Shown in pieces: positions 3,093-64,000 of a DNA stretch of 64,000 nt (positions are counted from its first letter, which is position 1; each line of letters opens with the position of its first letter). The notes beneath the pieces were generated by a model. It searched no databases and was not told the origin of the DNA. It worked only from the letters and a program-made list of their open reading frames with translations. The stretch comes from Gekko japonicus. Taxonomy: Eukaryota. Both the position numbers and the translations under genes were made by a program. The stretch is from positions 1,197,502 through 1,261,501 of the forward strand of contig NW_015169783.1 in NCBI RefSeq assembly GCF_001447785.1, given 5' to 3'.

Positions 3093-6000
3093 TGTTGTGT
3101 ACCCAGAGAAACCGCACATGCGGTCGGGTCCACACGTGGCCATGCAAATGGCCCAAGCTTCGCTTCCAGAGACAATAGCCCGAACGGATCCTATGGCCCT
3201 CTATTGAACGGCTTGGATCCGAGAATTGACCTATGGGACTTGGGTGCACTGTAAATATCCTAGCACGGGTGTGGGTGTGTGTTTGGGTGTGGTTTGCTAC
3301 GGAGATATAAGCCGGCCTCTGGCCCGGCTACTTCATCTCCGTTCTCCTATGTACGAATAAAGTATAAGCTGAAATCACTATGCTATGCCTCAGGCTCAGT
3401 ACTTTATACTGGCGATGAGGATAGGATCCCGTTGAGCGAGCCGGACTCTTCAAACAGCTGTGCCCCGAGCATCGTTCCTTCGGAAGTCACCTCACCCCAC
3501 ATTGCTCATGAGCAGCACTGCACCACACACTGCTCCCCAGGACATCACTCCCCACTTCACGTGAGAGTCATGGCTGTCACTCTGGGACACCTCAAAGTCT
3601 TCGACCCCACACACTCCGAGTTTTGGGAATCGTGGGTGGACCAGCTCACCAGCTAGTTCACCTACCATGAGGTCACCGACACAGTCAAGAAATGGGCCCT
3701 ACTCCTCAGCACATGTGGGGTGGCCACCATTCGCCTGGACAAGGGCCTCCTGGCTTCCAATAAGCTGACCAAGAACACATACGACAAGATCATCACAGCC
3801 CTCACAAAGTACTATGCGCCAAAGCCCACCAAGATGGCCAAGCGCATGGACTTCCAGGCGTACTTCCAGGCGTGCCTCCAGCGGCCCGGTGAAACGGCCC
3901 CTGCTTTCATGGCCGAACTCTGCCAGCAAGCGATGGACTGCGAGTTCCAGGATGTCGAGGACATCATCTTAACCCAATTCGATTGGGGCATCCGGGATGC
4001 CAAGCTTCGCCGCAAACTTGTAGGTACCACAGACCTCAAGTTAGAAGCAGCCCTACAGATGGCCACTGCATTTGAGGGCTCACACCGTGACCATTCACCA
4101 TCATCAACACACCACGTGTTCCCAGCTGCGGCGTCCGACAACTCGGAAGAAGAAGTCCTGCACGTTCGACAGCCCAGCTGCAGGAATCCACGACCCCCGT
4201 AGGGAGCAACAGCACATCCCGAGAAGCTGGCTACCCAAGCATCCTGTGCTAGCTGCGGGGACACACACGAGCGCAAGACATGCCGTTTCTGCGACACCGT
4301 CTGCCGAACATGTGGGAAGCAAGGCCACATCATCCGCGCCTGCCGATCCCGCGGCACCCGGAAGAAGACATCCACTCACCAGGAGGACCTGGATCTGCAT
4401 ACGCTGACCATCAACCAACACCAGGTAATGAATTTGCCCCCAGAAGCCCCTAACAAAATGCATGTTACTGTGTTAATAGAGGGGTCCTCCTGTAGAATGG
4501 AACTGGACACGGGCTTCTTGTTTTCCATAATCTCTGCAGAGACATTAAGTAAACTCTGCCCTGGGGGGGGGGGGGCTCCTAAAGCAGCCACAGGGTCTGT
4601 CCCTCCAGGACTTCCAGAAGAACCCCATGGCCATCAAGGCCTGGGGCAAATTCAGGGTACAATTCAGAGACTTTGATGGCCCTTTAGAATTGCTGGTGGT
4701 GGAAGGGAGACTCACATGCCTGCGGGAACTTGCGTGGTTTGGGCCCCTGGGATTTGCGGTGACGGGCATAAACGCCATACAGCCTCAGAACTTTAATTCG
4801 GTCTGTGAGGAGTTCCTGAGGGTCTTCGAGGGCACGCTTGGCCGCTACTCTGGCACCCCGGTTTTACTTGAACTTGATCCCACGGTGCGGCCCATCCGAA
4901 TGAAGGCCAGGCGGCCCCCGTTAGCATTGCGGCATTGTGGCCCAAGATAGAGTCCAAACTGGACCGCCTGGTGGAGCAGGGAGTGCTAGAACCGGTGCCA
5001 CATGCCCGCTGGAAAACCCCCATCGCCACCCCGGTGAAGCCTAATGGGGACGTCAGAATTTGTGCCGATTATAAGTGTACCATTAACAAGGCACTTCAAG
5101 ACCACGCGTACCCAGTACCGGTGGTCAGTCACGTGTTGATCTCCTTAGTGGGGGCAAGGGTTTTCGGTAAGCTGGACTTGGCCCAGGCCTATCAACAGCT
5201 GCCAGTGGACAACGCCACCGCAGAAGCCCAAACTATAGTAACCCACCGGGGGGCTTTCAGAGTGCGGCGGCTGCAATTTGGGGGTGTTTTTCAAAACATG
5301 ATGGATTGTCTCCTCAAAGGCATCCCAGGAGTCCAGCCGTTCTTCGACAACGTTTTAATTGCGGCTCCGGACAGTGCTCGAGCACTTTGACACTGCCGGC
5401 CTGAAGGTCAAACGGGAGAAATGCCTCCTGGGGGTGCCGCGGATAGAATTCTTGGGGTTTGCGGTAGATGCCCAAGGAATTCACCCTACGCAAGCCATCA
5501 GTCAAGTGCCCACACCCTCATCTAAGTTGAAGTTGCAGGCCTTCCTGGGACTTTAAAATTTTTATCACTCCTTTCTCCCCAACAAGGCCACCATCACTAA
5601 ACCTCTTCACAGACTCCTCGACACGCTCCATGGGTCTGGGGTCCTAAACACACTGCTGCCTTCTGGGTGGTAAATAACTGTTGGTACCCAAAGATGTCCT
5701 CGCCCACTTCAATGAGTCCCTGCCCGTGGTGTTAGCTCGCGACGCTTCTCCCTATGGGGTGGGGGCAGCCCTGGGGCACCGGCTGGCCGATGGCCGTGAG
5801 GTTCCCATGGCTTATTACTCCCGTACGCTGTTGGTAGCTGAGCGCAATTATGTACAAATAGACAAAGAGGCCCTTGCGATCGTGGCCGCTGTGAAAAAAT
5901 TTCACGACTACCTGTATGGCCGGGTCTTCATGATTGTTACCGACCACAAACCCCCTTGGGCCAGATTTTGTCTCCCCGGGTGCTGCGGTGGTCCATCTTC

Positions 6001-7658
6001 CTTGCAGGCTACCAGTACTCTCTGATCCACTGCCCTGGTAAGGCGATGGGCCACGCAGACACCCTGAGCCGCCTCCCGCTGCCTTCCTCTGACCCAGCGC
6101 ACCACATTGCCTTGCTGAAGGACCTGCCCTATCGCCCGGTTCAAGTGGGGGAGATCGCCTCCTCTCTGGGTCCTGGACTGGGTGGGAAGGGGGTGGCCTG
6201 CCGGCTCAGTGGGACCCAAGTTCTCGGCATTCTCGGGCCGCCGCGACAAGTTGTTCTCCCACAAAGGGTGCTTGTTGTGGGGAAGCCGGGTGGTGATACC
6301 GCCACCCCTGCAAGGGCGAGTACTCACCGCCCTACATGAACACCACCCAGGGATAGTCAGAATGAAAGCCTTGGCCCGGAGCGATGTATGGTAGCTGGGG
6401 TTGGACAGTGAGGTTGAGGATACTGTAAAGCGCTGCCAGATATGTCAAGAGTCACAGCCCGAGCTCCCGAAAGCACCAGTGTGACCATGGGAGTCGTCCC
6501 ACAAGCCGTGGGCAAGACTACTTTTGGACTTTGCCGGGCCCTTCCAGGGACAGATCTTCTTTATACTACTCGATGCTTACACAAAGTGGCTCGAGGTGAC
6601 ACCGGTCCCGTCAACCTCGTCCCGGTCAGCCATCCGCGCGATGTGGCGGATCTTTCGCTCCCACAGCATACCTGACTCTTTGGTAACTGACAATGGCACA
6701 CCTTTACCTCCACGGAGTTTCAGGAGTTCGTGCATTATGGTATATGGCACATACGTTCCACTCCCTTTCACCCCGCAACCAATGGCCAGGTGGAGCGCAT
6801 GGTATGGACTACGAAAGAGGCGCTGCGCCGCATGGACCGGGGGGGACTGGGACTACCAGCTGGCCGCCTTTCTATTCAGACAGCGCATGACACCTCACTC
6901 CACCACTGGCCGCAGTCCAGCGGAGCTGCTCATGGGACACCGCCTGACAACCCGGATGGACCGCCTCCATCCAGACTGAGCACCAGAACACAGCACAAGC
7001 TCCGAAGATCAGGGGGCCCTGCGAGGGTTCTTCCTGGAGGAACCCGTGTATGCCAGGAACTACGGCTAGGGTCCCACCTGGGTTCCGGCAAGAGTCGTCC
7101 AGGTGACCGGGCCCCTCTCATATAAAGTCCCCTGTGACGACGGCCAGCTGTAGAGGCGGCACATTGATCAACTGCATCGCCACATCCTACCCACGGCCCC
7201 GGAAGTATCAGATGATGACAACCCTTCTCCTGGGGAACCAGATGCTACCAATCCACCTCATCCAGGGACAAGCGATCTACCCAGGAGGACAGTGGCAACG
7301 TGGAACCAACAGGCAACCTGGAGCCCAGCAGCACACCAGCCCCGGCAGCGACCCCTGTGGCGGAGGTTCCTTCCCCGGAGCCGACAAGAACGGTGCCAGG
7401 GAGCCCAGCCCCAGAAGTCCGCCACTCCACGAGGGAGTGAAGGCATCCCACATACCTCAAAGACTATGTCAGCTAGGGGTAATTTGGACCGGGGGGGGAG
7501 GGGTGCTGTGTATCCAGAGAAACCGCACACCTGGTCGGGTCCGCACATGGCCATGCGAATGGCCCAAGCTTCGCTTCCAGAGACAATAGCTCGAACGGAT
7601 CCTAGGGTGCACCTATCGGATGGCTAGGATCCGAGAATTGACCTATGAGACTTGGGTG
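3093..7658 (+). mobile_element. Decayed Gypsy LTR retrotransposon (Mag-like)
   Basis: 5'LTR 3093-3408 (TGTTGTG...TTTATA); PBS TGGCGATGAGGATAGGAT at 3410 complementary to the tRNA-Ser(GCT) 3' end; gag from ~3570 with Cys/His knuckles; protease LDTG (~4500); RT (ICADYK, KLDLAQAY); RNase H (DASPYG, EALAI, TDHKP); integrase (DFAGPF, TDNG, NGQVER); G-rich PPT ending 7503; 3'LTR 7504-7658, truncated; multiple stops and frameshifts. Confidence 0.95.
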
Positions 7659-20887: not shown

Positions 20888-20903
20888 NNNNNNNNNNNNN
20901 NNN
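20888..20903. other. Assembly gap (16 N)
   Basis: Run of n next to a poly-C tract. Confidence 0.99.
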
Positions 20904-21560: not shown

Positions 21561-21731
21561 ATGTAGCTACGGTAGTTACTTCATTTATAGAAGAAAGTTT
21601 GAGTCCATTGAAGTGGGCGTGCTCACGAAAGCTGGTTACCCAGGAAACATTTTTTGTTGGTCTTAAAGATGCCACTCGACTCAAACTTCGTTTTGCTGCT
21701 TCAGACCAACACGGCTATCCCACCTGCATCT

Positions 21732-24706
21732 TCTTGCTGTTGTTCAGTCACACAGTCGAGTCCGACTCTTCGCGACCCCATGGACCAGATCACGCCAGGC
21801 CTTCCTGCCTTCATCGTTGCATCGATGACACTGTCTAACCATCTCATCCTTTGCCGTCCCCGTCTTCTTTGACCTTCAGTCTTTCCCAGCATCAGGGTCT
21901 TCTCCAGTGAGTGCTTCCTTCTCATTTGATGGCCAAAGTATTTGAGCTTCAGTTTCATTATCTGGCCTTCCAAGGAACAGTCAGGGTTGATTTCTTTTAG
22001 GATTGACTGATTAGATCTTCTTGCAGTCCAAGGGACTCTCAGGAGTCTTCTCCAGCACCATAGTTCAAAAGAATCTATTCTTCGGAGCTCGGCCTTCCTT
22101 ATAGTCCAACTCTCGCAGCCATACATGACAACTGGGAATACCATTGCTTTGACCATGCGGACTTTTGTTGGCAGGGTGATGTCTCTACTTTTTATCATGC
22201 TGTTTAGGTTCGCCATCGCTTTCCTCCCAAGGAGCAGGCGTCTTTTAATTTCATGGCTGCTGTCACAGTCTGTGGTGATCTGGGATCCCAGGAACGTGAA
22301 GTCTGTCACTACTTCCACAACTTCCCCTTCTATTTGCCAAGGAGTGATGGGGCCGGATGCCATGATCTTAGTTTTTTTGATGTTGAGCTTCAAGCCCACT
22401 TTTGCGCTCTCCTCTTTTACCCTGAGCAAGAGGCTCTTTAGGTCCTCTTCACTTTCTGCCATTAGAGTGGTATCGTCTGCATATCTGAGGTTGTTGATCT
22501 TTTCCCCAGCAATCTTAATTCCCGCTTGTGATTCATCCAGGCCAGCATTTCGCATGATGTACTCTGCATATATATTAAATAAGCAAGGCGACAATATACA
22601 TCCTTGTCGTACTCCTTTTCCTATGCTAAACCAATCAGTTGTTCCATATCCAGTTCTAACTGTTGCTTCTTGACCCTTATACAGGTTTCTCAAGAGACAT
22701 GTGAGGTGGTCTGGTACTCCCATCTCTTTAAGGACCTGCCATAGTTTGTTGTGATCCACACAGTCAAAGGCTTTAGCATAGTCAATGAAGCAGAAGTAGA
22801 TATTTTTCTGGTACTCTCTTGCTTTCTCCATAATCCAGCGAATGTTGGCAATTTGATCTCTAGTTCCTCTACCTCTTCGAAACCCAGCTTGTACTTCTGG
22901 CAGTTCTCTATCCACGTACTGTTGAAGCCTAGCTTGTAGGATCTTGAGCATGACCTTGCTAGCGTGTGATATGAGTGCAATTGTGCGATAGTTTGAACAT
23001 TCCTTGGCATTGCCCTTCTTTGGGATTGGAATGTATACTGATCTTTTCCAATCCTGTGGCCACTGTTGCGTTTTCCAAATTTGCTGGCAAATGGAGTGCA
23101 GAACTTTAACAGCATCATCTTCTAAGACTTTGAATAGCTCAGCTGGAATACCATCACCTCCACTAGCTTTGTTGTTAGTAATGCTTTCTAAGGCCCATTT
23201 AACTTCACATTCCAGGATGTCTGGCTCGAGGTCAGTGATTATACCGTCGTGGTTGTCAAGGACATCGAGGTCTTTCTTGTATAGTTCTTCTGTGTATTCT
23301 TGCCATCTTTTCCTAATCTCTTCTGCTTCTGTTAGGTCCCTACCGTTTTTGTCCTTTATCATGGCCAGCTTTGCATGGAACGCTCCCTTGATTTCTCCAA
23401 TTTTCTTGAAGAGATCTCTAGTCCTTCCCATTCTATTGTTTTCTTCTATTACTTTGCACTGTTCATTCAGGAAGGCCTCCTTATCTCTCCTTGCTGTTCT
23501 CTGGAAATCTGCGTTCAGTTGGGTAAATCTTTCCTTTTCGCCTTTGCCTTTCGCTTTCCTTCTTTCCTCTGCTATTTGTAAAGCCTCATCAGAAAGCCAC
23601 TTTGCTTTCTTACATTTCTTTTTCTTTGGGATGGTGGTGATTGCTGCTTCCTGTACAATGTCACGAACCTCTGTCCATAGTTCTTCAGGCACTCTATCTA
23701 TCAAATCCAGACCCTTGAATCTATTCTTCACCTCTACTGTATATTCATCAGGGATGCGATCTAGGTCAAACCTGAATGGCCTCGTGGTTTTCCCAATTTT
23801 CTTCAGTTTAAGTCTGAATTTTGCAATGAGTAGCTCATGATCTGAACCACAGTCAGCTCCAGGTCTTGTTTTTACTGACTGGATAGAGCTTCTCCATCTT
23901 TGACTGCAAATTATATAGTCAATCTGATTTCGGTGTTGCCCATCTGGTGATGTCCATGTGTAGAGTCGCCTCTTAGGTTGTTGGAAAAGGGTGTTCGCTA
24001 TGACCAGTGTGTTCTCTTGACAAAACTCTGTTGTTGAATGGTTTGCCTTGGAATTGGACCAAAATCATTCTGTCATTTTTGAGATTGTATCCCAGTACTG
24101 ACTTTTGCACTCTCTTGTTGACTATAAAGGCCACACCATTTTTTCTATGGGCTTCCTGGCCACAGTAGTAGATATAATGGTCTTCTGAGTTAAATTTGCC
24201 CATTCCTGTCCACTTTAGTTCACTGATTCCTAAGATATCGATGTTCAGTCTTGCCATCTCATTTTTGACCACGTCAAGCTTACCTTGATTCATAGATCTT
24301 ACATTCCAGGTTCCTATGCAGTATTGTTCTTTGCAGCATCGGACTTTCCTTTCACCATCAGACACATCCACAACTGAGCGTCCTTTTGGCTTTGACCCAG
24401 CCGCTTCACTCTTTCTGGGGTTACTTGTACTTGCCCTCTGCTCTTCCTCAGTGGCATATTGGACACCTTCCGACCTGAGGGGCTCATCTTCTGGCATCAT
24501 ATCTTTTAGCCTTTTGATACTGACCATGGGGTTTTCTTGGCAAAAATACTGGAGTGGGTTGCCATTTCCTTCTCCAGGGGATCACGCCTGGTCTGAGTTC
24601 TCTGCTGTGGCCTGTCCATCTTGGGTGGCCCTCCACGGCATAGCCCACAGCCTCATCGAACCACGCAAGCCCCCTCGCCACGACAAGGCAGTGATCCATG
24701 AGGGGG
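21732..24706 (-). mobile_element. Full-length RTE-BovB LINE
   Basis: APE endonuclease start (IGTWNVRSMNQGKL, LGISEL); open RT frame (GVRQGCILSP, LRYADD; ORF 21701-23731); short CAA-like tail; TSD ACCTGCATCT at 21722-21731 and 24707-24716; internal deletion in the endonuclease near 24030. Confidence 0.95.
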
Positions 24707-47542: not shown

Positions 47543-47748
47543 CAGTGTTCCCTCTAAGCTGAGTTAGTGTGAGCTAGCTCACAGTTTGTTAGCCTCCGGC
47601 TCACACATTTTTGTCTTAGCTCAGGAAGGATGGCTCCAGAGCAGACTAATTTATGCAGCAGCCAAACTGCTTGCTCACAGCTTTAATGCCAGTAGCTCAC
47701 AAAGTAGACTTTTTGCTCACAAGACTCCACAGCTTAGAGGAAGCATTG
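47543..47748 (+). mobile_element. hAT MITE family A just downstream of the AP5B1 stop
   Basis: Same TIRs; 8-bp TSD gttacagg. Confidence 0.9.
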
Positions 47749-47955
47749 GTTACAGGCCTTCTTTCCTCTTTAGGGAAACTGTAGAGAAAAGATTGTTGAC
47801 ACTTTAGGTGAGCGGCGCTACGGCCACCACATCCCTTGCCCAACGCTTGGGGATGTTCAGCCTCCGCAGTCCCGTTTCCAACACTCCACCTCACCCAGTA
47901 CCAAACTTCCCTTTCCCCATCCAACTTACATGGCAGCTGACTTGCAAAAAGATTT

Positions 47956-50576
47956 TTATTTTTTGTTAGAACCATTTTTTACAGACCCACATCCCAACCG
48001 GAGTTCAGCCAACAGCCCCCCACCTCCCCCTCCCCCTGCCTCCACCAGACCCAGCAAGTAGCTGTTCAGGGAAGGCAGAAGCTTCCAGTTGTCCGTTCGG
48101 ATGCTCACTCGGGCGGCGTCTTTCACGTGCTGCACTCGCAGCAGGATGTGGTACTGCGGCGGCAGAGCCATGCCGATTTCGTACGAGCCCAGCTGTTCAG
48201 CTAGAATGTACCTGGCGAAATGATCCTGCACCAATTGCCCCAGGGATTGAGGGGCCACAGGCCAGCAGGTGAGGCTTTCAGCACAAGTCCCGTTGCTGTC
48301 CGGGTGAAGCTGGTGCCAAAGAGCACCAAAGAGTTGGCGTCGCTTCTCAGGGGGCCAGGCAGGCAGCGTCAGGGGCAAGAAGAGATCGGGGAAAGCTACT
48401 TCCAACGGCTCCAGCTGGCCGCAGTGGGTAAGGCCCTTCTGCGTTGTATACACAGCAAAGACGTTGACACGCGTGGGGTAGGGACAACGTGGCTGCAGCG
48501 TCAGGGTCACAGTCTGGGGTGGGTGGCCTGCCGAGAGGCAGGGCACACACAGTTCTGGCATGGCCTCATAATGCCGGTCAGAGCACGCGAAACGCAGCAC
48601 CACACAGAGCAGGAGGTCGCTGGGGGGACCCGCGTGGACCAGCCGGTACGTCAAATTCAGCTGCGAGGGGGGCCGCACCTCCAGCAACCACCGGCAATAG
48701 CTGTCCACGTCTTCCTCCGAGTGGGGGGCCGGAGGCACTTCACTGCCATGCCCTACCCTCTCCAACCGCATGGGGGCTCGCTCAGCCGGGTGCACCGTCA
48801 GGGAAGCCACAAAGCTCTCGCTATCGGCCACAAAGGAGGAGGAGAGCGTCCGGGCCTTGACGGGGCCCTGTGGGGCCAGCACAGCCCCGAGTTTCTCATC
48901 GGAGAGGCTGGCCAGCAGGGTATAGTAGAACCGAGCCCGGTCTCGGACGTCGACATCCACGTGGCAGAGGGAGATGGCCTGCAGGAGGTCGGCCAGCTGG
49001 TACGGAGCAGGCAGCGGCTGGAGTTGCATCAAATTGCGGCAGACGCTCAGGAGGATTTGTCCCGAGCGCCAGTCGCCTAGCTGGTCCAAGGCCACCAAGC
49101 GTCTCAGGAACTGCATGGTGCTCCTCTGGGGGATGTCCTTCTCCTTTGCCAACCTGGCCAAGACTTTGAGATGCCAGCTCAGCTCCTTCTCTTGTGAGGG
49201 TAACCCCACAATCAGCTCTTGCAAGGCGTGAGCCAATGAACCGGCCCACCCAGGCTCCTCCGGCACCGCCCACGCTTCATCCAAGAGGTTGATAACATTT
49301 GGCGCCAGAGCACAGTTCTGACGATAGAGATCCAAGAGGCAGCGGGTCAGCTCGGCCATGGGCTGCGCCCGGGAGCCAAAGTACCGGGAAAAAAGGAACG
49401 CTGCTCGGAAAAAGAGCCGGGAGGCCTCCTGCCCACCTTTCCCGGCCACCAGTCCCCCAAGAGCAAGCACGTGCTCCAAGAGGTAGCCCACCCCTTGTTC
49501 GGCAGCAGGCCCCTCACTCTCCATGCACACCAGGCACAGCAAGTTCAGCCGGGCCAAGATGGTGCCCTGATCCTGGAAGAGCCCGGGGAAAAGGCCGGAA
49601 ATTGTGTGAGGCGTGAGCAAAACTGGCAGGCCCTCCTCCGTGCCCGAGCCCAGCGGCCGGTTCTCAGGGAAATGCAAGAGGCAATCCAGATGGAAAAGTT
49701 TCACCGGAGTGGGCAAGGCCGGGTGCTGGGCCATGCCCACCAGGCGGCGAAGCAAGAAAGCCTCATCTTCGGCAGTGAAGAGGCTGTCCGTGAAGAGGGA
49801 CTTGAGTTGCAGGATAGCGTGCAGCAGCGCCACGTCGGCTGTGCCAAAGAGGCGCACCAGCTGGGCTTTGAAGATGGCGGGAGACTCACGGCTTGGGCCA
49901 AGTACCACAGGAGGTGGCTTTGAGCGGCGGGGGACAGAAGATAAGAGCTGTCCAACAGAGCCGAGACCACCGACTTCAGCTCCTTGAGGTCCCCGGAGGA
50001 GGGCATCAGGAGCAGCTGGTCGATAGTCGCCAAGGAGAGGTCACCCAGCTCCTTCGTAGCCCCCCAGACCAGACCCTCGCTGCCGGCCAGAAGCTCCCCC
50101 AGGGTTCCCTGCCCACCCCGTGCAAGTAGCAAGATGGCGTTCCGCAGAGCCAAGCTATAGAGCAAGGTGTAACCCTGATGGGCCAGGGAGGCTTCCTGCT
50201 GCTGCAAGGAACGCAGGGTCTCCAAGCGCCGCGACAGCAAGCCAGGGTGGCAACACTCCACCTCTCTCAGGCACTCACAAGCGGCCACCCGTACGGGCCT
50301 TTCAGCAGACCCCCCATGCCGGTCGTTGAGGTCCGAAGCCAGGTGGAACAGCAGGGAGAGGTACTCGTGGGCGGTCGGGCAGCCCTCGCTGAAGGCCTCC
50401 GTGGCCAGCAGCACAGTCCCCATTGCAAAGAGCAGGTGGCAACGCAGAGACAGCACTTTGGGCGAGGAACCCAGCTGGGCAAAAAGGGACAGCAAGGATG
50501 CCGTGGCTTCTTGCCCAACCTTGGCATCTGGGCACAACAGCGTGGGATATTCCAAGAGGAGCGACAACATGGAGAC
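47956..50576 (-). CDS. AP5B1: AP5B1 large last exon (frameshifted near 49885)
   Basis: 2621 nt (not a multiple of 3); homologous protein switches frame at GCC GTG AGT CT CCC GCC ATC. Confidence 0.9.
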
Positions 50577-53500
50577 CTGCAAGAGGGAAATATAGCTGCT
50601 GTCAGGGAGAGCCAGCCAGAGGGCACTGGGGAGCTGATGAGCCAGGTCCGGTTTCCCTTAACGCCTGCCCTGCTAGGTTCCACCTCCACTCCTGCACAAC
50701 CCCTCCCCACACTGTGACTTCCCAAAAACTGGATTGGCTATCTTCAGATATTAATCTCAAATCCATTATTGTTTATTTTACAACAGGGTTTTTCTTTCAA
50801 GGCAGCATGTCTTAAAAACACAAAACCAGGCTAAGCCTTTTAGAAAATTTATTTATTTATTTATCCATTCACTTTATACCCCACCCTCCCCGCGAACGGG
50901 CTCAGGGCGGCTTACAGCAGTGGCCCACTTGCCAATAAAACCCAATAAAATTTCAAATCAGCTGGAGAAACCCCAGGCCACAAACTGACTTGTGTCAAAG
51001 TGAGATTGGCTTTGACAAGGAGCAGGTCCCTCTCAGCTGTGCAATCAATGGATAACTGCAGTGCAATCCTAAGAAGGCTTTCCTGGGAGTAAGTCCCACA
51101 GTGAACACACCTGAGTAGGATTCTGGGCAGACCTGCTTCAGATGGCGCTCTTTGATCAGCACCCTCTCAGATGGCTAAACACACACAAGGCTCCGATGCA
51201 ACATATCACACTGACTCAGCTGCCCCTTTGTGGCTGGAGACGCCCTATTTTATTTATTTATTAAATTTATACCCTGCCCTACCCCGCAAGCCGGCTCAGG
51301 GCGGCTTACATAATTTCTCTGCTCCCTTGGGTTTGATATTGTTTATATTTTATAGTGATCGTTTTCAATTGTTATTATCTGGGTTTTTAAAAAAAGAATT
51401 CTCAGTGAGTTTTAAAAAAGCATTGTAAGATTGTCTTTGAATATTAACTACTGACTCCTGTTATATCTATATGTTCTGATGGAAAACAAGTCCAGTAATT
51501 TGCCTTGTGTTATAATATTTGAAAAATTAATAAAAATTTATTTTAAAAAAACATTGTAAGCAACTCTGGAATCTCAAATGAAAAGCGGAACAAACGGTTT
51601 TACAAATAAACATCAATGCTATTTCTATAAATAAATTATTTAAAGCAGAACTTACAATTAATTTTTTTAGCTGTCACCCATTGTATAGTAGAAGCAGTAG
51701 TGAGAATATTTTCTGGTGAGAAGAACTGGACTCTGATCAAATTTTGATTCTGGTTCACCATTTATATACCAATGAAAGCTTGTGGTTCTAACCTTTAAAC
51801 AGGCACTTTCCTGCTTATGATTGTTACTGAGTTTTAGCATCATCCGTTATTCCCATTTCACAGAGTGGGAGATTGAGGGGAGGGCACTGACAGAAGACCT
51901 TGCCTGAACATCTCCCAAATCAAAATCCAGTTTTCTAGTCACAAGGTCAAACTTATTCTCAGACTTTTCTGGGATATGCATTCACAGAATCCAACATTTT
52001 TTTAAAAACAGAAGACTTACAATAATGAATTATTTGAGTTTAGGTTTTGGGGGCCCCACATGCTTAGCTACAAAGATGGAATAGGTATCAAGCATACTTG
52101 GGTATCAAATACTCTACAAAGTTTAGTGTAGATCAAGATGGGAAGCTGTGTTAGTCTGTCTGTAGCAGTAGAAAAGAGCAAGAGTCCAGTAGCACCGTAA
52201 AGACTAACAAAATGTGTGGCAGGGGAGGAGCTATGTGACAGAATCCTGAGGGGACGGAGAAGAGTGTACAGATTACAGGGGACACACCCTTTCTGAATGC
52301 TCCCTCATGTAAAAGACTCCCTGCAAGTAAAAAAAAAATAATAATAATAAACTATCACAGCAGGGACAGAGGTTCTAGTCCAGCCTGCTCTGTACCAGTA
52401 TTTTATTGTGAGAAGTTTTTGTTTACAGATTCAGAAATGTTATTTCCCCTCCACTCCACATTTTGAAGTGGAACAATCCGTTCTACAGCCTCATTTCTAA
52501 CCTTTCTAAAGAGCCTGGGACATTGTACACGGTTCTCTCCTCCCTCACATTGATTCTCACAACGAACCTATGAGGTAACTCAGAGGGCTGCGAGAGAAAA
52601 CTGAGAGTGGTAGGCCCAAGGGCATCCGGCTTCATGACTGAGAAAGGGATATAAACCCAAGTAGAGACGTAAAATTCCCAAAAATTTTGAAGCTCGGAAA
52701 AACCCAGAATTTTTTGGAAAAATTGGAAAACAAGCTACATTAGCACTTCTTTTTTCTTTTCCAGATTGAAAGTCATTCTGTTACTTTAGGAACATAAAAT
52801 ATGACTATGGACATTGTTACTTGGCATGAAATGATCACAACTAGCATATTAAAAATATAGTGTATCCAAACAATTACAAACAGAATACCCACCCACATGC
52901 AAAAACAAAACTGAAACCTTTTTCTTTTCTTGTGACAATAGCAACCTCCTAAAGGAAAAAAATGCATTTTGTTCTTGCATTGGAGAGTTCAGTTTATAAT
53001 CTAGGACTTGCTTGTCCTCAGTGCACAGAAATTAGATTAATCTGATACTATACATATTTTTTAGAAATGATTTGGAAAATATTTGAACACCTTATCCTAA
53101 AATATTTTATTCATCATGTTAAAATAAAACATTCCATAATCAATTTTCTTTTCTTTTTTCAATTTTTCCATTTTTTTGCAAAAAAACAAAAAAGCTTCAG
53201 AAAAAACCGGGGGAGGGACTTTTCCCCCTGAATTTTTCCGGTTTTTTCCCAGGCCTTCACATCTCTAAACCCAAGTGCCCCCAAATCATTTTCACCCATG
53301 CCAAAGCTACAAGACAATCACTTCTCACATTTCCCAGCTTTTCCATACTTTTCTCAGCACAGACTAGCACCTCTCCACACACACACACACTCGGTCTCTG
53401 CACATGCAGCTGCCTGTTGATGAAGAGGCTATTATATGACGGAATGTTCACAAACATTCTTAATAGCTGAGACAGAAAGGTTCCAGTACCACAACAACAA

Positions 53501-54011
53501 CATGGCTGTTGTGAGGGAAGTGCATGGATAGTTTGATTGGGGTAAGAAAAAAATCATTCAGAGACTAAAATGGAGATTGCATTTTAGGGAGACTGGGAAA
53601 AGCAAAGTTATGGACAGGAGAGCTAAGAAGGTGATGGAACCTCATACCAGTGGGATGAATTGTCAAGGCAGCATTAGCAGAGGGAACCACCCCCACACCT
53701 TCCAATTCCTGTTGTTTTAACAGAGTATGTCTTGCTTTTTCCACAACAATCCTAAACGTACAACTTGGCCCTTCAAGCTGCTGGAGCGAGGGCCATGATC
53801 TCACCACACACCCTTCTCTGCATCCACTCTAAAAAGTAATGAGTCTCCCCCTCCATACCTTGATCTGCTCCCCCAGACTTTCATTGTGCAGATCCTGCAA
53901 CAGTTCAGCTACAAAGGCATCGCTGGCCCCATAGGCAGAGAGGAAGGCTGTGGGGCACAAACGGAAAGAGGCGACAGCGCTGGTCCAGCCCTCTGCATTC
54001 CTTGGGCTCAT
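47956..54011 (-). CDS. AP5B1: AP-5 complex subunit beta-1; two coding exons, the second with a frameshift near 49885 in this sequence
   Basis: Exon 54011-53859 (MSPRNAEGWTSAVASFRLCPTAFL...LLQDLHNESLGEQIK|gtatgg). Exon 50576-47956 begins cag|VSMLSLLLEYPTLLCPDA, contains ACECLREVE, FKAQLVRLFGT, DVRDRARFYYTLL, IRTDNWKLL. It is split between ORFs 49701-50582 and 47956-49908. Same position as in human, next to RNASEH2C. Confidence 0.93.
52662..53267. mobile_element. hAT non-autonomous element family C (AP5B1 intron)
   Basis: TIR TAGAGACGT / ACATCTCTA; 8-bp TSD aacccaag; AT-rich interior with GGAAAA subterminal repeats. Confidence 0.85.
53859..54011 (-). CDS. AP5B1: AP5B1 first coding exon (51 aa)
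   Basis: caccATGAGC start; resembles human MGPLSRDAWAQRLGAFRASPSAF...SEQTK; donor AAG|gtatgg; splice acceptor ttcgcag 16 nt upstream of the ATG (exon starts 54027). Confidence 0.9.
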
Positions 54012-58388: not shown

Positions 58389-58700
58389 CTCCCTACCCGC
58401 CCAGTCGCCTCCGGCTTCGACCCCGACTTCCTTTGGCCGCAGCTCAGCTGATCTCCGATCCTTCCTAACAAACCAGCGCTTCCTGCTTCCCTTTGCGACG
58501 ATTTCAGCGGCCGCCACTAGAGGGACACCGAGCAGCGGGCCAACGTGCCGGTCCTTCCCACACCAGCATCCCGGCCTAAGTCCCAGCGGTGAGTTAATGA
58601 AGTGCTGGAGCTCCCGGTTGCCCGAAGCCATTGCCTGCAACGCCTCTTCTCCAAATGGGGGAGGGGGGGGGGGAGAGAAGCGAGGCACCCTGCACGTGCT
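58389..58700 (-). promoter_or_regulatory. Probable AP5B1 CpG promoter and non-coding exon 1
   Basis: CpG-rich block; donor-like GAG|gtacgt at 58389/58388 on minus strand; the first coding exon is preceded by a strong acceptor, implying an upstream exon. Confidence 0.55.
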
Positions 58701-58970: not shown

Positions 58971-61900
58971 TATAATGTACTGGGTCCGATGCATGAGTTA
59001 GTGAATCAGCTCATAGTTTATTAGATAGGCAGGGAACAAGACAAAGTGGCCGGCTCGCAGGCTGGTTTATATTCCCAAGGTAAAACCACACCCCACGCAC
59101 ACCCAACACCCGTGGTAGGTTTATTTACAGTGCTAGCAAACCATAGGTTAACTCTAGGATCCTAGACTCCCGATTGGCAGGGGACTAGGATCCGACCGTC
59201 TATTGTCTGTAAGAGCGAAGCTCAAGCTCTTTGCATGACCACGTCTTGCACGCGGTCGGCTAGGACACAACACCCCTCTCCCCAAAGTCCAGAGCACACC
59301 GACACACATAGTCCTGTAGATAGGTCAGTGGCCTTCTCACTCGGGAGGAGCAGCGAAGCTCAGGTGTTACTGGAGCCGGGGGCTGTTTGTGGTGCTGTGC
59401 CAGTGGTGGAGGCGGCAGTGGTGCGGCTGTTTCCATGCTCTCCCCTGCTGTTGCTGGGCTGTTGGTCTTTCGCTGGGGGCCCTGTCGCTTCCGGGAGCAG
59501 CACCGTTAGGGCAGCTTCTTCTGTTGCCTGTGGGGGAGCGTACTCGAAGTCACCCTCCTCTAGATCTATGGGCAGCACTTGGGGGCACAGCTAGTCGATG
59601 TACCGCCGCCAGAGTTGTCCGTCTTCACACGAGACTTCATACGACAGGGGCCCCGTGTCTGACAACTCTAGCGGGGATCCATACGGGGGCCCGGGCATAG
59701 TTCCGGACGTATCCCGGGTCTTTGGGGAAGAACCTCCCCGGGGTGCCACTTGTTCCTCTGGGCCCGTGTCGTGATCCGGGGCCCTGTCCGGATGGAGGCG
59801 ATCCAGCCTGGTCATTAAGCGCCTGCCCAGCAGGAGCTCGGCTGGGCTGCAGTCGGTCATGCTGTGCGGCGTGGTGCTGGGGGCTAGTTTGTAGTTGCAG
59901 TCCCCGGAGTCCATGCACCGCAGCACCTCCTTGGTCATCCTCACCATCCTCTCTGCTTGGCCATTGGTTGCCAGGTGAAACAGGGCCAAGCGGATGTGCT
60001 TGATCCCATAGTACTCCGTGAACTCCTTGAACTTGGCCAAGGTGAAAGCCGAGCCATTATCCGTGACCAAGGAGTCGGGAATGCCTTGGGCACTGAATAT
60101 CTGCCACATGGCCTGGATGGCGGATCGGGAGGAGGTGGAGGGCACTGGGACCACCTCGAGCCATTTGCTGTAAGAGTCTACAAGAATAAAAAACAGCTGG
60201 CCTTGGAAGGGGCCCGCAATGTCTAGGTGTAGTCTGACCCAGGGTTTGTGCGACGATTCCCAAGGGTGCACTGGAGTGTGGGGTGGTGCTGGGTGAGTCG
60301 CCTGGCACGTCTGGCAGCGTTTCACAGTGTCCTCGATATCTCAGTCAATCCCTGGCCACCACACATCCAGACGACCCTGGGATGTGTTTCGTGGAGGGCG
60401 GCAAGAACCCGGTCCTGCAAGGGGGCAGGAATCACCACCCGACCACCTCGCAGTATACACCCCTTGTGACTTGACAGCTTCCGAGAGGCGAACGCCGCAA
60501 AGTCTGCCCCCCCAGGCCCATGGGCCACCCCCTCCCCACCCAGTCCAAGACCCGAGTGAGGACGCGATCCCAGCCCGTGAGGCAGGCCACCTCCACCACC
60601 TGAACCAGCCTGTCCGGAAGGGCCTCCAGAAGGGCAACGTGATGGGCTGGGGCAGGGGCAGGATCAGAGGAGGGAAGCGGGAGGCGGCTCAGCGTGTTGG
60701 CATGGCCCATCGCCTTGCCGGGGCAGTGGACAAGCACATACAAGTACCCAGCCAAGAAAATAGACCAGCTGAGCACCTGGAGCGACAACATGTGCGGGGT
60801 CAGGCATTCGGGAGCCAGGAGCCTCAAGAGTGGCTTATGGTCGGTGATGATCGTGAAGGGCCGGCCATACAAATAATTGTGAAATTTCTTGACCCCCACC
60901 ACAATTGCCAGGCCCTCCTAGTCAATCTGAGTGTAGTTGCGCTCAGCTGGCGACAAGGTCTGTGAATAGTAAACCACCGGGACCTCGTGGCCATCTGCCA
61001 AGCGGTGTCCCAGAACCACCCCCACCCCGTAGGGAGAAGCATCATACGCTAACACCACTGGAAGCTTTTCATCGAAATGGGCGAGCACCTCTGTGGCGAT
61101 TCCTTGTTTTATATGTGTGTGTGTCTCTTTAAAAGTTTGGTTGCATGGTAAATAGACTAGAATGGTTGAAAGAGGCAAGTGTGATGTGACTGGTGATTGA
61201 CAGAGAGGGGGAGGGGTTTTGGAAGTGGTTCCGAGTGGATGAATATGTATGTCTGTCGGGAGTGACAGTTACAGGTTTGACAGTTGATAAAGACAGTTGA
61301 TAGTTCGTTCTGAGGTCTGTGTGAGAAGCAGTCTTGTGTGTGATATAAGAGTTAAGTTCTATGTATGAAGGAAAGTGACAAGCAGTTCTGTGTTGTGGCA
61401 GATAAAAAAGGAACAACTGCAGTTGTTCACCAAAAAGGGAGAGAGAAAACAGAAAAGTTGAATGTCTAGGAAACAGTAAAGAGTTACAAAGTTACCTGAA
61501 AGATCCCTGTCAGTAAGGGAGCAGATCTTGTGTGACACACCAAGCAATTGTTGAAAATATTCACATTACTGGTTACATTGTTCTACCCTTTTATTTATGA
61601 ATTATTTCAATAAATCCTCTTTTATTTAAGTATACCAGCTCGGAAAGAAATACTTCCTCAGTACCACATAGTTCCCCATAAGCCTTACACTCGACCTACC
61701 TACCCAGTAATAGCAAAAGTAAAGTATAAAGGTTTGGAAAGCCTTAAATTTCCTGGTGGCAGCCAGATATACCCTAGTAGAACAAAATAAAGAACACTTT
61801 TAAAGGGAAACCAGTCCTCCCCAGATAAGGGGTCGTCACAACCGCATTCGAAGTCAAGAGTCCTTTAACCGCCCTGAAAGCGGTGTTGTGTGTGGCGTCC

Positions 61901-64000
61901 CAAATCCAAGGGGCGCACTTGTCCAGCAAACTGTAGAGCGGCTCCGCCACCACCACCTTGTGAGGTAAGAAAGAATGATAAAAGATCAGCAGGCCTAAGA
62001 AGGCCTGCAGCTCAGACTTTGAAGTGGGGGCGGGCGCCTGGACAATGGTGCAAATCTTCTCATCCGTAGGATGGATGCCCTGGGCGTCGACAGCAAAACC
62101 CAAGAATTCCACCTGCGGGACCCCAAGGAGGCACTTTCCCCTCTTGACCCAGAGACCGGCAGAATCGAACCGCTGCAGCACCGCCCGGAGCCGGCTGGCT
62201 AAGGTCTCAGTGTCCGGTGCCGCAATCGAGACATCATTTAGAAAGGGCTGGACTCCAGGAATGACATTCAAGAGAGAATCCATAAAACTCTGAAAAACCC
62301 CAGGCGCCACGCTCACCCCAAACTGTAACCTGTGCACCTTAAACGCCCCCTTGTGGGTGACTATCGTCTGTGCCCCTGTCGAAGCCATGTCCACCGGCAG
62401 CTGCTGATAGGCCTGGGCCAAGTCCAGCTTCCCAAAGATCTTCGCCCTCGCTAGGATGGCCAAGACATGGGCAACCACCGGCACAGGGTAAGCATGTGCC
62501 TGAAGTGCCTTATTGAGGGTGCACTTATAGTCAGCACAGATCTGCACGTCCCCATTGGGCTTAACCGGGGTCACAATTGGTATTTCCCACCTTGTATGGG
62601 CGACTGGTTCCAGCACCCCCTGCCCGAGGTGCTCCAGCTCCGCCTCGATCTTCGGCTTCATTGCCAAAGGCGGGTGACGGGCCTTCAGGCGGATAGGCCA
62701 CACTGCCGGATCGAGGTTGAATGTGACGGGGGGACCGGAGTAGCGGCCAAGCGAGCCATCAAAAACCCTGGGGAACTCATCGCAAATCGTGGTGAAGTTA
62801 TGTGCCGTGACCCGGTGCACCCTCGTTACCTCAAACCCCAGTGGCCCAAACCAGGAAAGTCCCATCAAACGTGTGACCCTACCCTCCACCACCAGAAAGT
62901 CAAGGAGCCCCTTGAAATCCTTATGTTTCACCCTGAACTTGCCCCAGCCCTTAATGGCCACTGGTTCTTTTAAAAGTCCCATAGCAACAGTCCCTGGGGC
63001 TTCTGCAGGCGGGGTCCCGCATTAGGGCAAAGCCAACGGAGGGTGTCCACAGAAATAACAGAAAAGGACGACCCAGTGTCTAGTTCCATACGGCATGGGG
63101 ACCCCTCAATGAGCACCGTAGTGTGCAACTTATTAGGGCTGTCAGGGGGCAAGTTCAGTACCTGGTGGTGGTGGGCCGACAGGGTGTGAAGATCTGATGA
63201 CTCCTGATGGACCGATGTCGTCTTGCGGTCTCCTCGGGACCGGCAGACCTGAGTGATGTGCTCCTGCTTCCCACAGGAGCGTCAGACGGCGTCCCTCAGG
63301 CGGCAGGTCCAGCATTCGTGCTCCTCACCACAGCTGGCACAGGATGCAGTGGTCTTCTCGGAAGTTGGGGCTGTTGAAGCTTGGGAGCATGGGGCGCAGT
63401 GAGAGGGCTGGAGAACTTCCTCCTCGTCGGAGACATCGGGGCTCCGGGTCACCGTGGTGTGGTGAATTGCCTGGCCGATCACACCTTTGTGTGCTTTCTC
63501 GTAGGCCATTGCATCCTTTAGCACCTGGTCGAGTGTCAAGTCCTCGTGGCTGGCGAGCTTGCGATGCAGTTTCGGCTCTCAAAGTCCCACGAGGAACTGG
63601 TCGAACAGAGAGTCGTTGAGACTCGGAAACACATATCGGGTGGCCACTCGGCGAAGGCCCGCCAGGAAGTCAGCGGCTGGCTCGTCCGGGCCCTGGACTT
63701 GTGCATAGAAGTCCAGGCGTTCCGCAAACTTCGTGGGCTTGGGCGCAAAGTGATCACTCAGTGCCTTCTTTAGTACATCGAAGGTCTCCTCTTTCGTTTT
63801 CAGGGAGATCAGGTCTTTCAGCAGCCTCAACATGTCGATGCCACAAGCGCTGATCAGGAGGGCCTTTTTTCGGTTGTCTTCCGTCACCACATGGAATTCC
63901 AGGTAGCCTTCCAGGTATTTGAGCCAGCTCACCCACTGCTCAGGGTGGGTGATATCAAACTCGGGAAGGTTACCCTGTGCGGTGGCCATTTTGCGAAGTC
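58971..64000 (-). mobile_element. Decayed Gypsy LTR retrotransposon (Mag-like), 5'LTR outside window
   Basis: gag ATG 63989; protease LDTGS (~63080); RT ORF 61774-62982; RNase H 60800-61090; integrase ORF 59591-60325; PPT then 3'LTR 59272-58971 (TGTTGTG...CAGTACATTATA). Confidence 0.95.
61092..61840 (+). mobile_element. Solo LTR (second family) nested in the Gypsy pol
   Basis: TGTGGCGA...TCGTCACA termini; 5-bp TSD acctc/accgc; AATAAA ~61609; removing it restores pol LLTSNAV-LAHFDEK. Confidence 0.88.

Follow-up and report, generated by a model that had tools for sequence, protein, structure and literature searches.

The question raised by this locus is whether the frameshift that interrupts AP5B1, a gene of lysosomal trafficking, in the Gekko japonicus assembly GCF_001447785.1 belongs to the animal or to its assembly. 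The window analysed comprises 64,000 nucleotides (contig NW_015169783.1, positions 1,197,502 to 1,261,501), and all coordinates given below are those of the window. The original prediction had offered a loss-of-function allele, an incipient loss of AP-5 or an assembly error as explanations; the allele and the error have been kept here, while a species-wide loss was rejected by contigs from other studies. The idea of an incipient loss was worth testing, since repeated losses of AP-5 across eukaryotes are described in the accessible text of PMC3191125. A search of the accessible literature for AP5B1 together with gecko retrieved no paper.

AP5B1 lies on the minus strand, and all four Pfam domains of the protein (AP5B1_N, middle, barrel and C) were identified above their cut-offs, as in the AP5B1/beta-5 proteins of PDB 8YAB (chain B), Gekko kuhli (KAL8184146.1) and Heteronotia binoei (XP_060107561.1). 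The model of the coding exons consists of a first exon at 53859..54011, with the ATG at 54011 (153 nt, 51 codons), a coding intron at 53858-50577, and a large exon at 47956..50576 which contains the four domains. A likely upstream 5' exon was found at 58391..58516 on the same strand, with an 83% match to the stretch of 49 aa by which the G. kuhli model is extended at its N-terminus. Since the codon preceding this match is TAG here and not ATG, the exon is likely to be 5' UTR. The gene resembles its gecko orthologues in sequence (86-95% identity), in the coding intron and in its neighbours: an RNASEH2C-like open reading frame adjoins AP5B1 (E 7e-4, narrowly under the cut-off), and a MYST-domain (KAT5-like) open reading frame also lies nearby. 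The human gene order is AP5B1-RNASEH2C-KAT5. A retrocopy or paralogue was ruled out by the coding intron and the neighbouring genes, and the gene is an ordinary AP5B1 orthologue.

As assembled, the large exon (acceptor 50576 to the TAA at 47956) measures 2621 nt, which is 2 mod 3. The upstream frame ends with ...HLLWYLAQAVS and the homologous frame picks up at SPAIFKAQLVRLFGT, exactly as first described, and recomputation returned the same exon length and the same 342-aa product, which ends at a premature stop (49701..49703, minus strand) after 60 out-of-frame codons. The break sits after residue 282 of about 929. The Pfam matches are divided between the two frames: AP5B1_N and the beginning of AP5B1_middle belong to the upstream frame, and the remainder of middle, with barrel and C, belongs to the downstream one. 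The two pieces match residues 49-296 and 304-876 of human beta-5 (PDB 8YAB).

The size of the gap was obtained by alignment to homologous proteins, as had been proposed for those of related squamates. The homologue set comprised 125 proteins, namely the best 120 of 155 search matches and five from a cluster look-up; closest among the matches listed were G. kuhli (94.7%), a Logan protein (91.6%), Heteronotia (91.0%) and Euleptes (90.0%), which places the window in a gekkonid gecko. Relatives read LAQAVS-VVRTQ-SPAIFK across the site. No gap interrupts the segment in 123 of the 124 proteins scored as covering it, among the 125 examined, and the six named geckos whose proteins are full-length all belong to these; the sole gapped homologue (P0006) begins downstream of the site and is misaligned. 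Exact VVRTQ was present in 30 of 35 covering lepidosaur proteins. Since the relatives carry VVRTQ with no gap, the window is missing five codons and one base. The earlier estimate of about five codons and one nucleotide thus became exactly 16 nt, absent behind 49884 (junction 49884..49885, minus strand), and among the geckos compared the gap is found only in this assembly. Neither the missing 16-mer nor its 12- and 10-mers have another copy within the window. An exact look-up of four proteins derived from the window, including the truncated product, gave no match for any of them, an outcome that carries no information, as the homologues did not include a near-identical protein either (best 94.7%). 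The frameshift is confirmed as a real feature of the assembly.

Whether the deletion is also found in other sequence data of the species was addressed with four of the 24 listed runs, aligned to 47700-50700. These were X1, X2, X10 and X22, from four studies; X1, X2 and X10 are contigs, X10 probably from DNA, and X22 consists of raw RNA reads. A 16-nt insertion behind 49884 was present at full depth in X1 (7.3/7.3), X2 (55.1/55.1) and X10 (87.1/87.1), so that the missing bases were seen directly and the intact sequence was found in 3/3 contig runs, from three studies. The original prediction had itself named reads containing these bases as the observation that would speak against it, and the contigs of the three studies provide it. 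With the 16 nt restored, a frame of 929 aa is open and reads AVSVVRTQSPAIF as in the relatives.

The three contig runs are three haplotype backgrounds, with 0 (X1), 16 (X2) and 32 (X10) letters other than those of the window over the gene pieces listed. In X1 (records 4-8), the gap is the only difference on the five gene pieces listed; six further changes counted for this run are inferred to fall in the repeat at 47700-47760. Since X1 is otherwise identical to the window, the haplotype of the window exists in intact form. Record 7 of X1 and record 24 of X2 leave the window at 50578, the splice acceptor, beyond which 219 and 26 of their letters are unaligned; this would be expected of spliced mRNA (the library type is not on record). 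None of the runs that contain the sequence is recorded as RNA, which speaks neither for nor against. The best-matching run may come from the sample of the assembly itself. If X1 were the assembled animal, it would not be independent evidence, yet the animal would then hold at least one intact allele.

Among the runs labelled as a single species, divergence from the window amounts to 0 in X1, about 0.6% in X2 and about 1.3% in X10, and X10 and X22 have most alleles in common. This divergence between runs suggests deep population structure or cryptic lineages.

The raw reads of X22 cover the exon thinly, and none falls in the intron bin. Depth at the site is 2, and no insertion reads are listed, at a likeness cut of 85% and a read length of 100 nt. 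Reads of 100 nt with a 16-nt gap probably fall below this cut, and the two site reads could be either clipped intact reads or reads of the deletion.

Standards for calling a gene lost were taken from Sharma et al. 2018 (PMC5865188), in the accessible text of which sequencing and assembly errors are described as a source of false gene-loss calls and raw-read validation as the standard. An inactivating change is there expected to lie neither in the first nor in the last 20% of the protein, and residue 282 of about 929 falls within the range so defined. A second criterion is support for the mutation by at least 10 unassembled reads, and X22 gives a depth of 2 at the site. Fixation was contradicted by the intact gene in the contigs. 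Since all three contig runs carry the 16 nt, loss of AP5B1 in the species is rejected, and the deletion is not a species trait. The gecko case resembles the false losses in that text in being a single inactivating change in a conserved gene that fails in independent sequence data; it departs from the standard given there in that the check was made by contigs, which do not separate an error from a private allele.

A loss restricted to the population or clonal lineage of the assembled animal, with the null allele homozygous or locally common as the beginning of AP-5 loss, is very improbable. It would accord with the many losses of AP-5 among eukaryotes noted in PMC3191125 (accessible text) and with the substructure implied by same-species runs lying up to 1.3% from the window (X10). 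However, X1, the run nearest to the window, is intact, the segment is conserved without a gap in nearly all of the vertebrate homologues, and there is no further decay. A second frameshift or stop was not found in AP5B1, and the identity to G. kuhli is equal on either side of the break (94.7/94.7%). Among the differences listed, synonymous codons outnumber non-synonymous ones, both against X10 (15/10, for the 25 of its differences in the reading frame that are listed) and against X2 (9/6). The broader proposition, of a null AP5B1 allele that is either segregating in a single gecko population or fixed there locally, as a natural vertebrate knockout of AP-5, is improbable, if less remotely so.

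The explanation preferred here, at somewhat better than even chances, is that the frameshift is a consensus error of this assembly. The surrounding stretch is rich in GC and CpG, and the 16 nt would probably have been dropped through slippage or mis-joining at a 2-nt AG repeat, either while gaps were being closed or in the small number of molecules or reads from which the consensus was set. In the animal itself, the gene would then code for a complete beta-5 subunit of about 929 aa. This explanation is favoured by the full-depth insertion with an intact frame in X1, X2 and X10, by the intact copy of the window's own haplotype in X1, and by the lack of a second disabling change, with similar identity of both flanks to relatives. 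The composition of the site is also in its favour: GC amounts to 65%, and the missing segment contains 4 CpG per 16 nt, the maximum of the exon (8/2622 windows). A gap of 16 N beside a C run at 20888 may point to an assembly that was gap-closed.

Several observations weigh against an error. The comparison was made with contigs, which drop minority alleles and so prove the presence of a sequence and not the absence of another. The X1 contig bearing the insertion ends at 49816 on one unaligned letter, where X10 and X22 have A>G, and X1 could thus be heterozygous. The two reads of X22, as set out above, could include the deletion. Consensus errors are mostly of 1-2 nt, and a clean loss of 16 nt with short microhomology resembles a natural germline deletion. 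The assembly also appears locally accurate, in that the gaps listed for X1, X2 and X10 include no further one over their coding pieces (48048-50578).

These last observations bear on the main rival, that the deletion is a real, recent and rare null allele of the sequenced animal, probably heterozygous, that was picked into the haploid consensus. This is a serious possibility, although one that falls short of even chances. The size of the deletion and its microhomology fit natural deletions, no other coding indel was seen locally, and the haplotype is otherwise the same as that of X1, as is expected of a young mutation. The microhomology was originally described as two copies of AGT; it is in fact the 2-nt AG (CT on the plus strand, AG on the minus strand), since the intact serine codon is AGC. 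By our own arithmetic with equal base frequencies, about 16% of random deletions would show microhomology of at least 2 nt by chance, which weakens this argument for an allele. Also against it are the absence of the deletion from all three contig runs (0/3), next to a depth of only 2 in X22, and a hairpin energy that is unremarkable at the site. A hairpin as the cause was set aside as a strong argument: the local fold energy is ordinary (rank 186 to 664 among about 2600 windows), and the 10-bp palindrome contained in the missing segment is one of six such in the exon.

The allele, if real, would be null, and the null effect originally predicted for the frameshift is judged right. The accessible text of bioRxiv 10.1101/2024.06.14.598999 assigns residues 1-632 of human beta-5 to the trunk and describes the C-terminal half of this trunk as binding zeta and the SPG11 hairpin, which is in keeping with such an effect. 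Comparable human alleles are known. In the accessible text of PMC12081239, the last-exon loss-of-function alleles p.Leu104TrpfsTer54, p.Arg155Ter and p.Gln288SerfsTer29 of AP5B1 lead to recessive macular dystrophy, and p.Gln288SerfsTer29, from a patient with this disease, was judged a full loss of function. By alignment, p.Gln288SerfsTer29 maps about ten residues upstream of the position that matches the gecko break. The two frameshifts fall almost at the same point of the large terminal exon, and each removes about two-thirds of the protein. However, the human alleles described there were found in patients, whereas the gecko change is seen in a single assembly only, and three runs contradict it.

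A real allele might also be rescued, since the deletion converts GTGAGC of the intact allele to the consensus donor GTGAGT (49884..49889, minus strand) at a codon boundary, and cryptic splicing from this new donor had been suggested as able to alter the outcome. A rescue of the frame in this way is hardly to be expected. The nearest frame-restoring acceptors would yield an intron of 29 nt, an intron of 89 nt, or longer introns with larger losses. An intron of 29 nt is too short for the vertebrate spliceosome, and that of 89 nt uses an AAG acceptor with a weak pyrimidine tract and costs 35 conserved residues, including the FKAQLVRLFG motif. No joint at the GTGAGT donor is listed in the aligned runs, a weak test with low power, as no run was shown to carry the deletion.

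Taken with the consensus error preferred above, the frameshift is most likely not a real biological feature, and at best a private null allele. Any annotation derived from this assembly would list AP5B1 as truncated or lost, while an intact gene is present in the data of the species. A real but rare allele would be one among the many carrier-state nulls of any genome; only if common or homozygous in a population would it provide a natural model of AP-5 deficiency. A true natural knockout would mirror p.Gln288SerfsTer29 and would test how far the gecko retina and nervous system tolerate the loss of AP-5.

Apart from the frameshift, AP5B1 had been described as open throughout, and this is correct; nevertheless, the gene differs from that of most geckos in two further respects. 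The stop codon that follows GLVEAG in geckos (ancestral position 48031..48033, minus strand) is replaced by GGA in the assembly, and 25 more codons are read before the TAA at 47958-47956. The resulting extension of 25 aa is Gly-rich, with an extra G and then GGGGGLLAELRLGCGSVKNGSNKK. The lost ancestral stop is not read as decay, since one relative (P0125) also reads past this position, ending 8 aa later, and the C-terminal tails differ among vertebrate homologues. X10 and X22 may hold about five further differences near 48033, and the site may be polymorphic. In addition, an in-frame gap of three codons (PPS---DLL) was found near residue 704 (about 48640-48620, minus strand) against the full-length geckos compared. 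Since X1, X2 and X10 have no insertion there, this deletion appears to be fixed in the species.

Two Paroedura picta models of AP5B1 (P0005 and P0126) have their C-terminus swapped for sequence matching 40219-39994 on the minus strand, which belongs to the RNASEH2C-like gene, and the swap spans 48211 to 40219 of the window on that strand. On this evidence, they would represent an annotated read-through or a mis-joined model.

The remainder of the window contains several other features. Its only N run, of 16 letters, lies at 20888-20903 beside the C homopolymer, and its equal length to the AP5B1 gap is probably a coincidence. An open reading frame of 787 aa at 21701-24064 on the minus strand contains a reverse transcriptase domain (Pfam RVT_1, E 1.6e-40); it looks like a young, truncated LINE, presumably RTE/BovB-like. 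A degraded LTR-retrotransposon-like element is present at about 3200-7600 on the plus strand, with an integrase core match (Pfam rve) at 6485-6976 that is below the cut-off (E 2.6e-6). A second such element at about 59000-64000 on the minus strand appears to be split by an insert unrelated to it (about 61840-61100). Both are presumably Ty3/gypsy-like.
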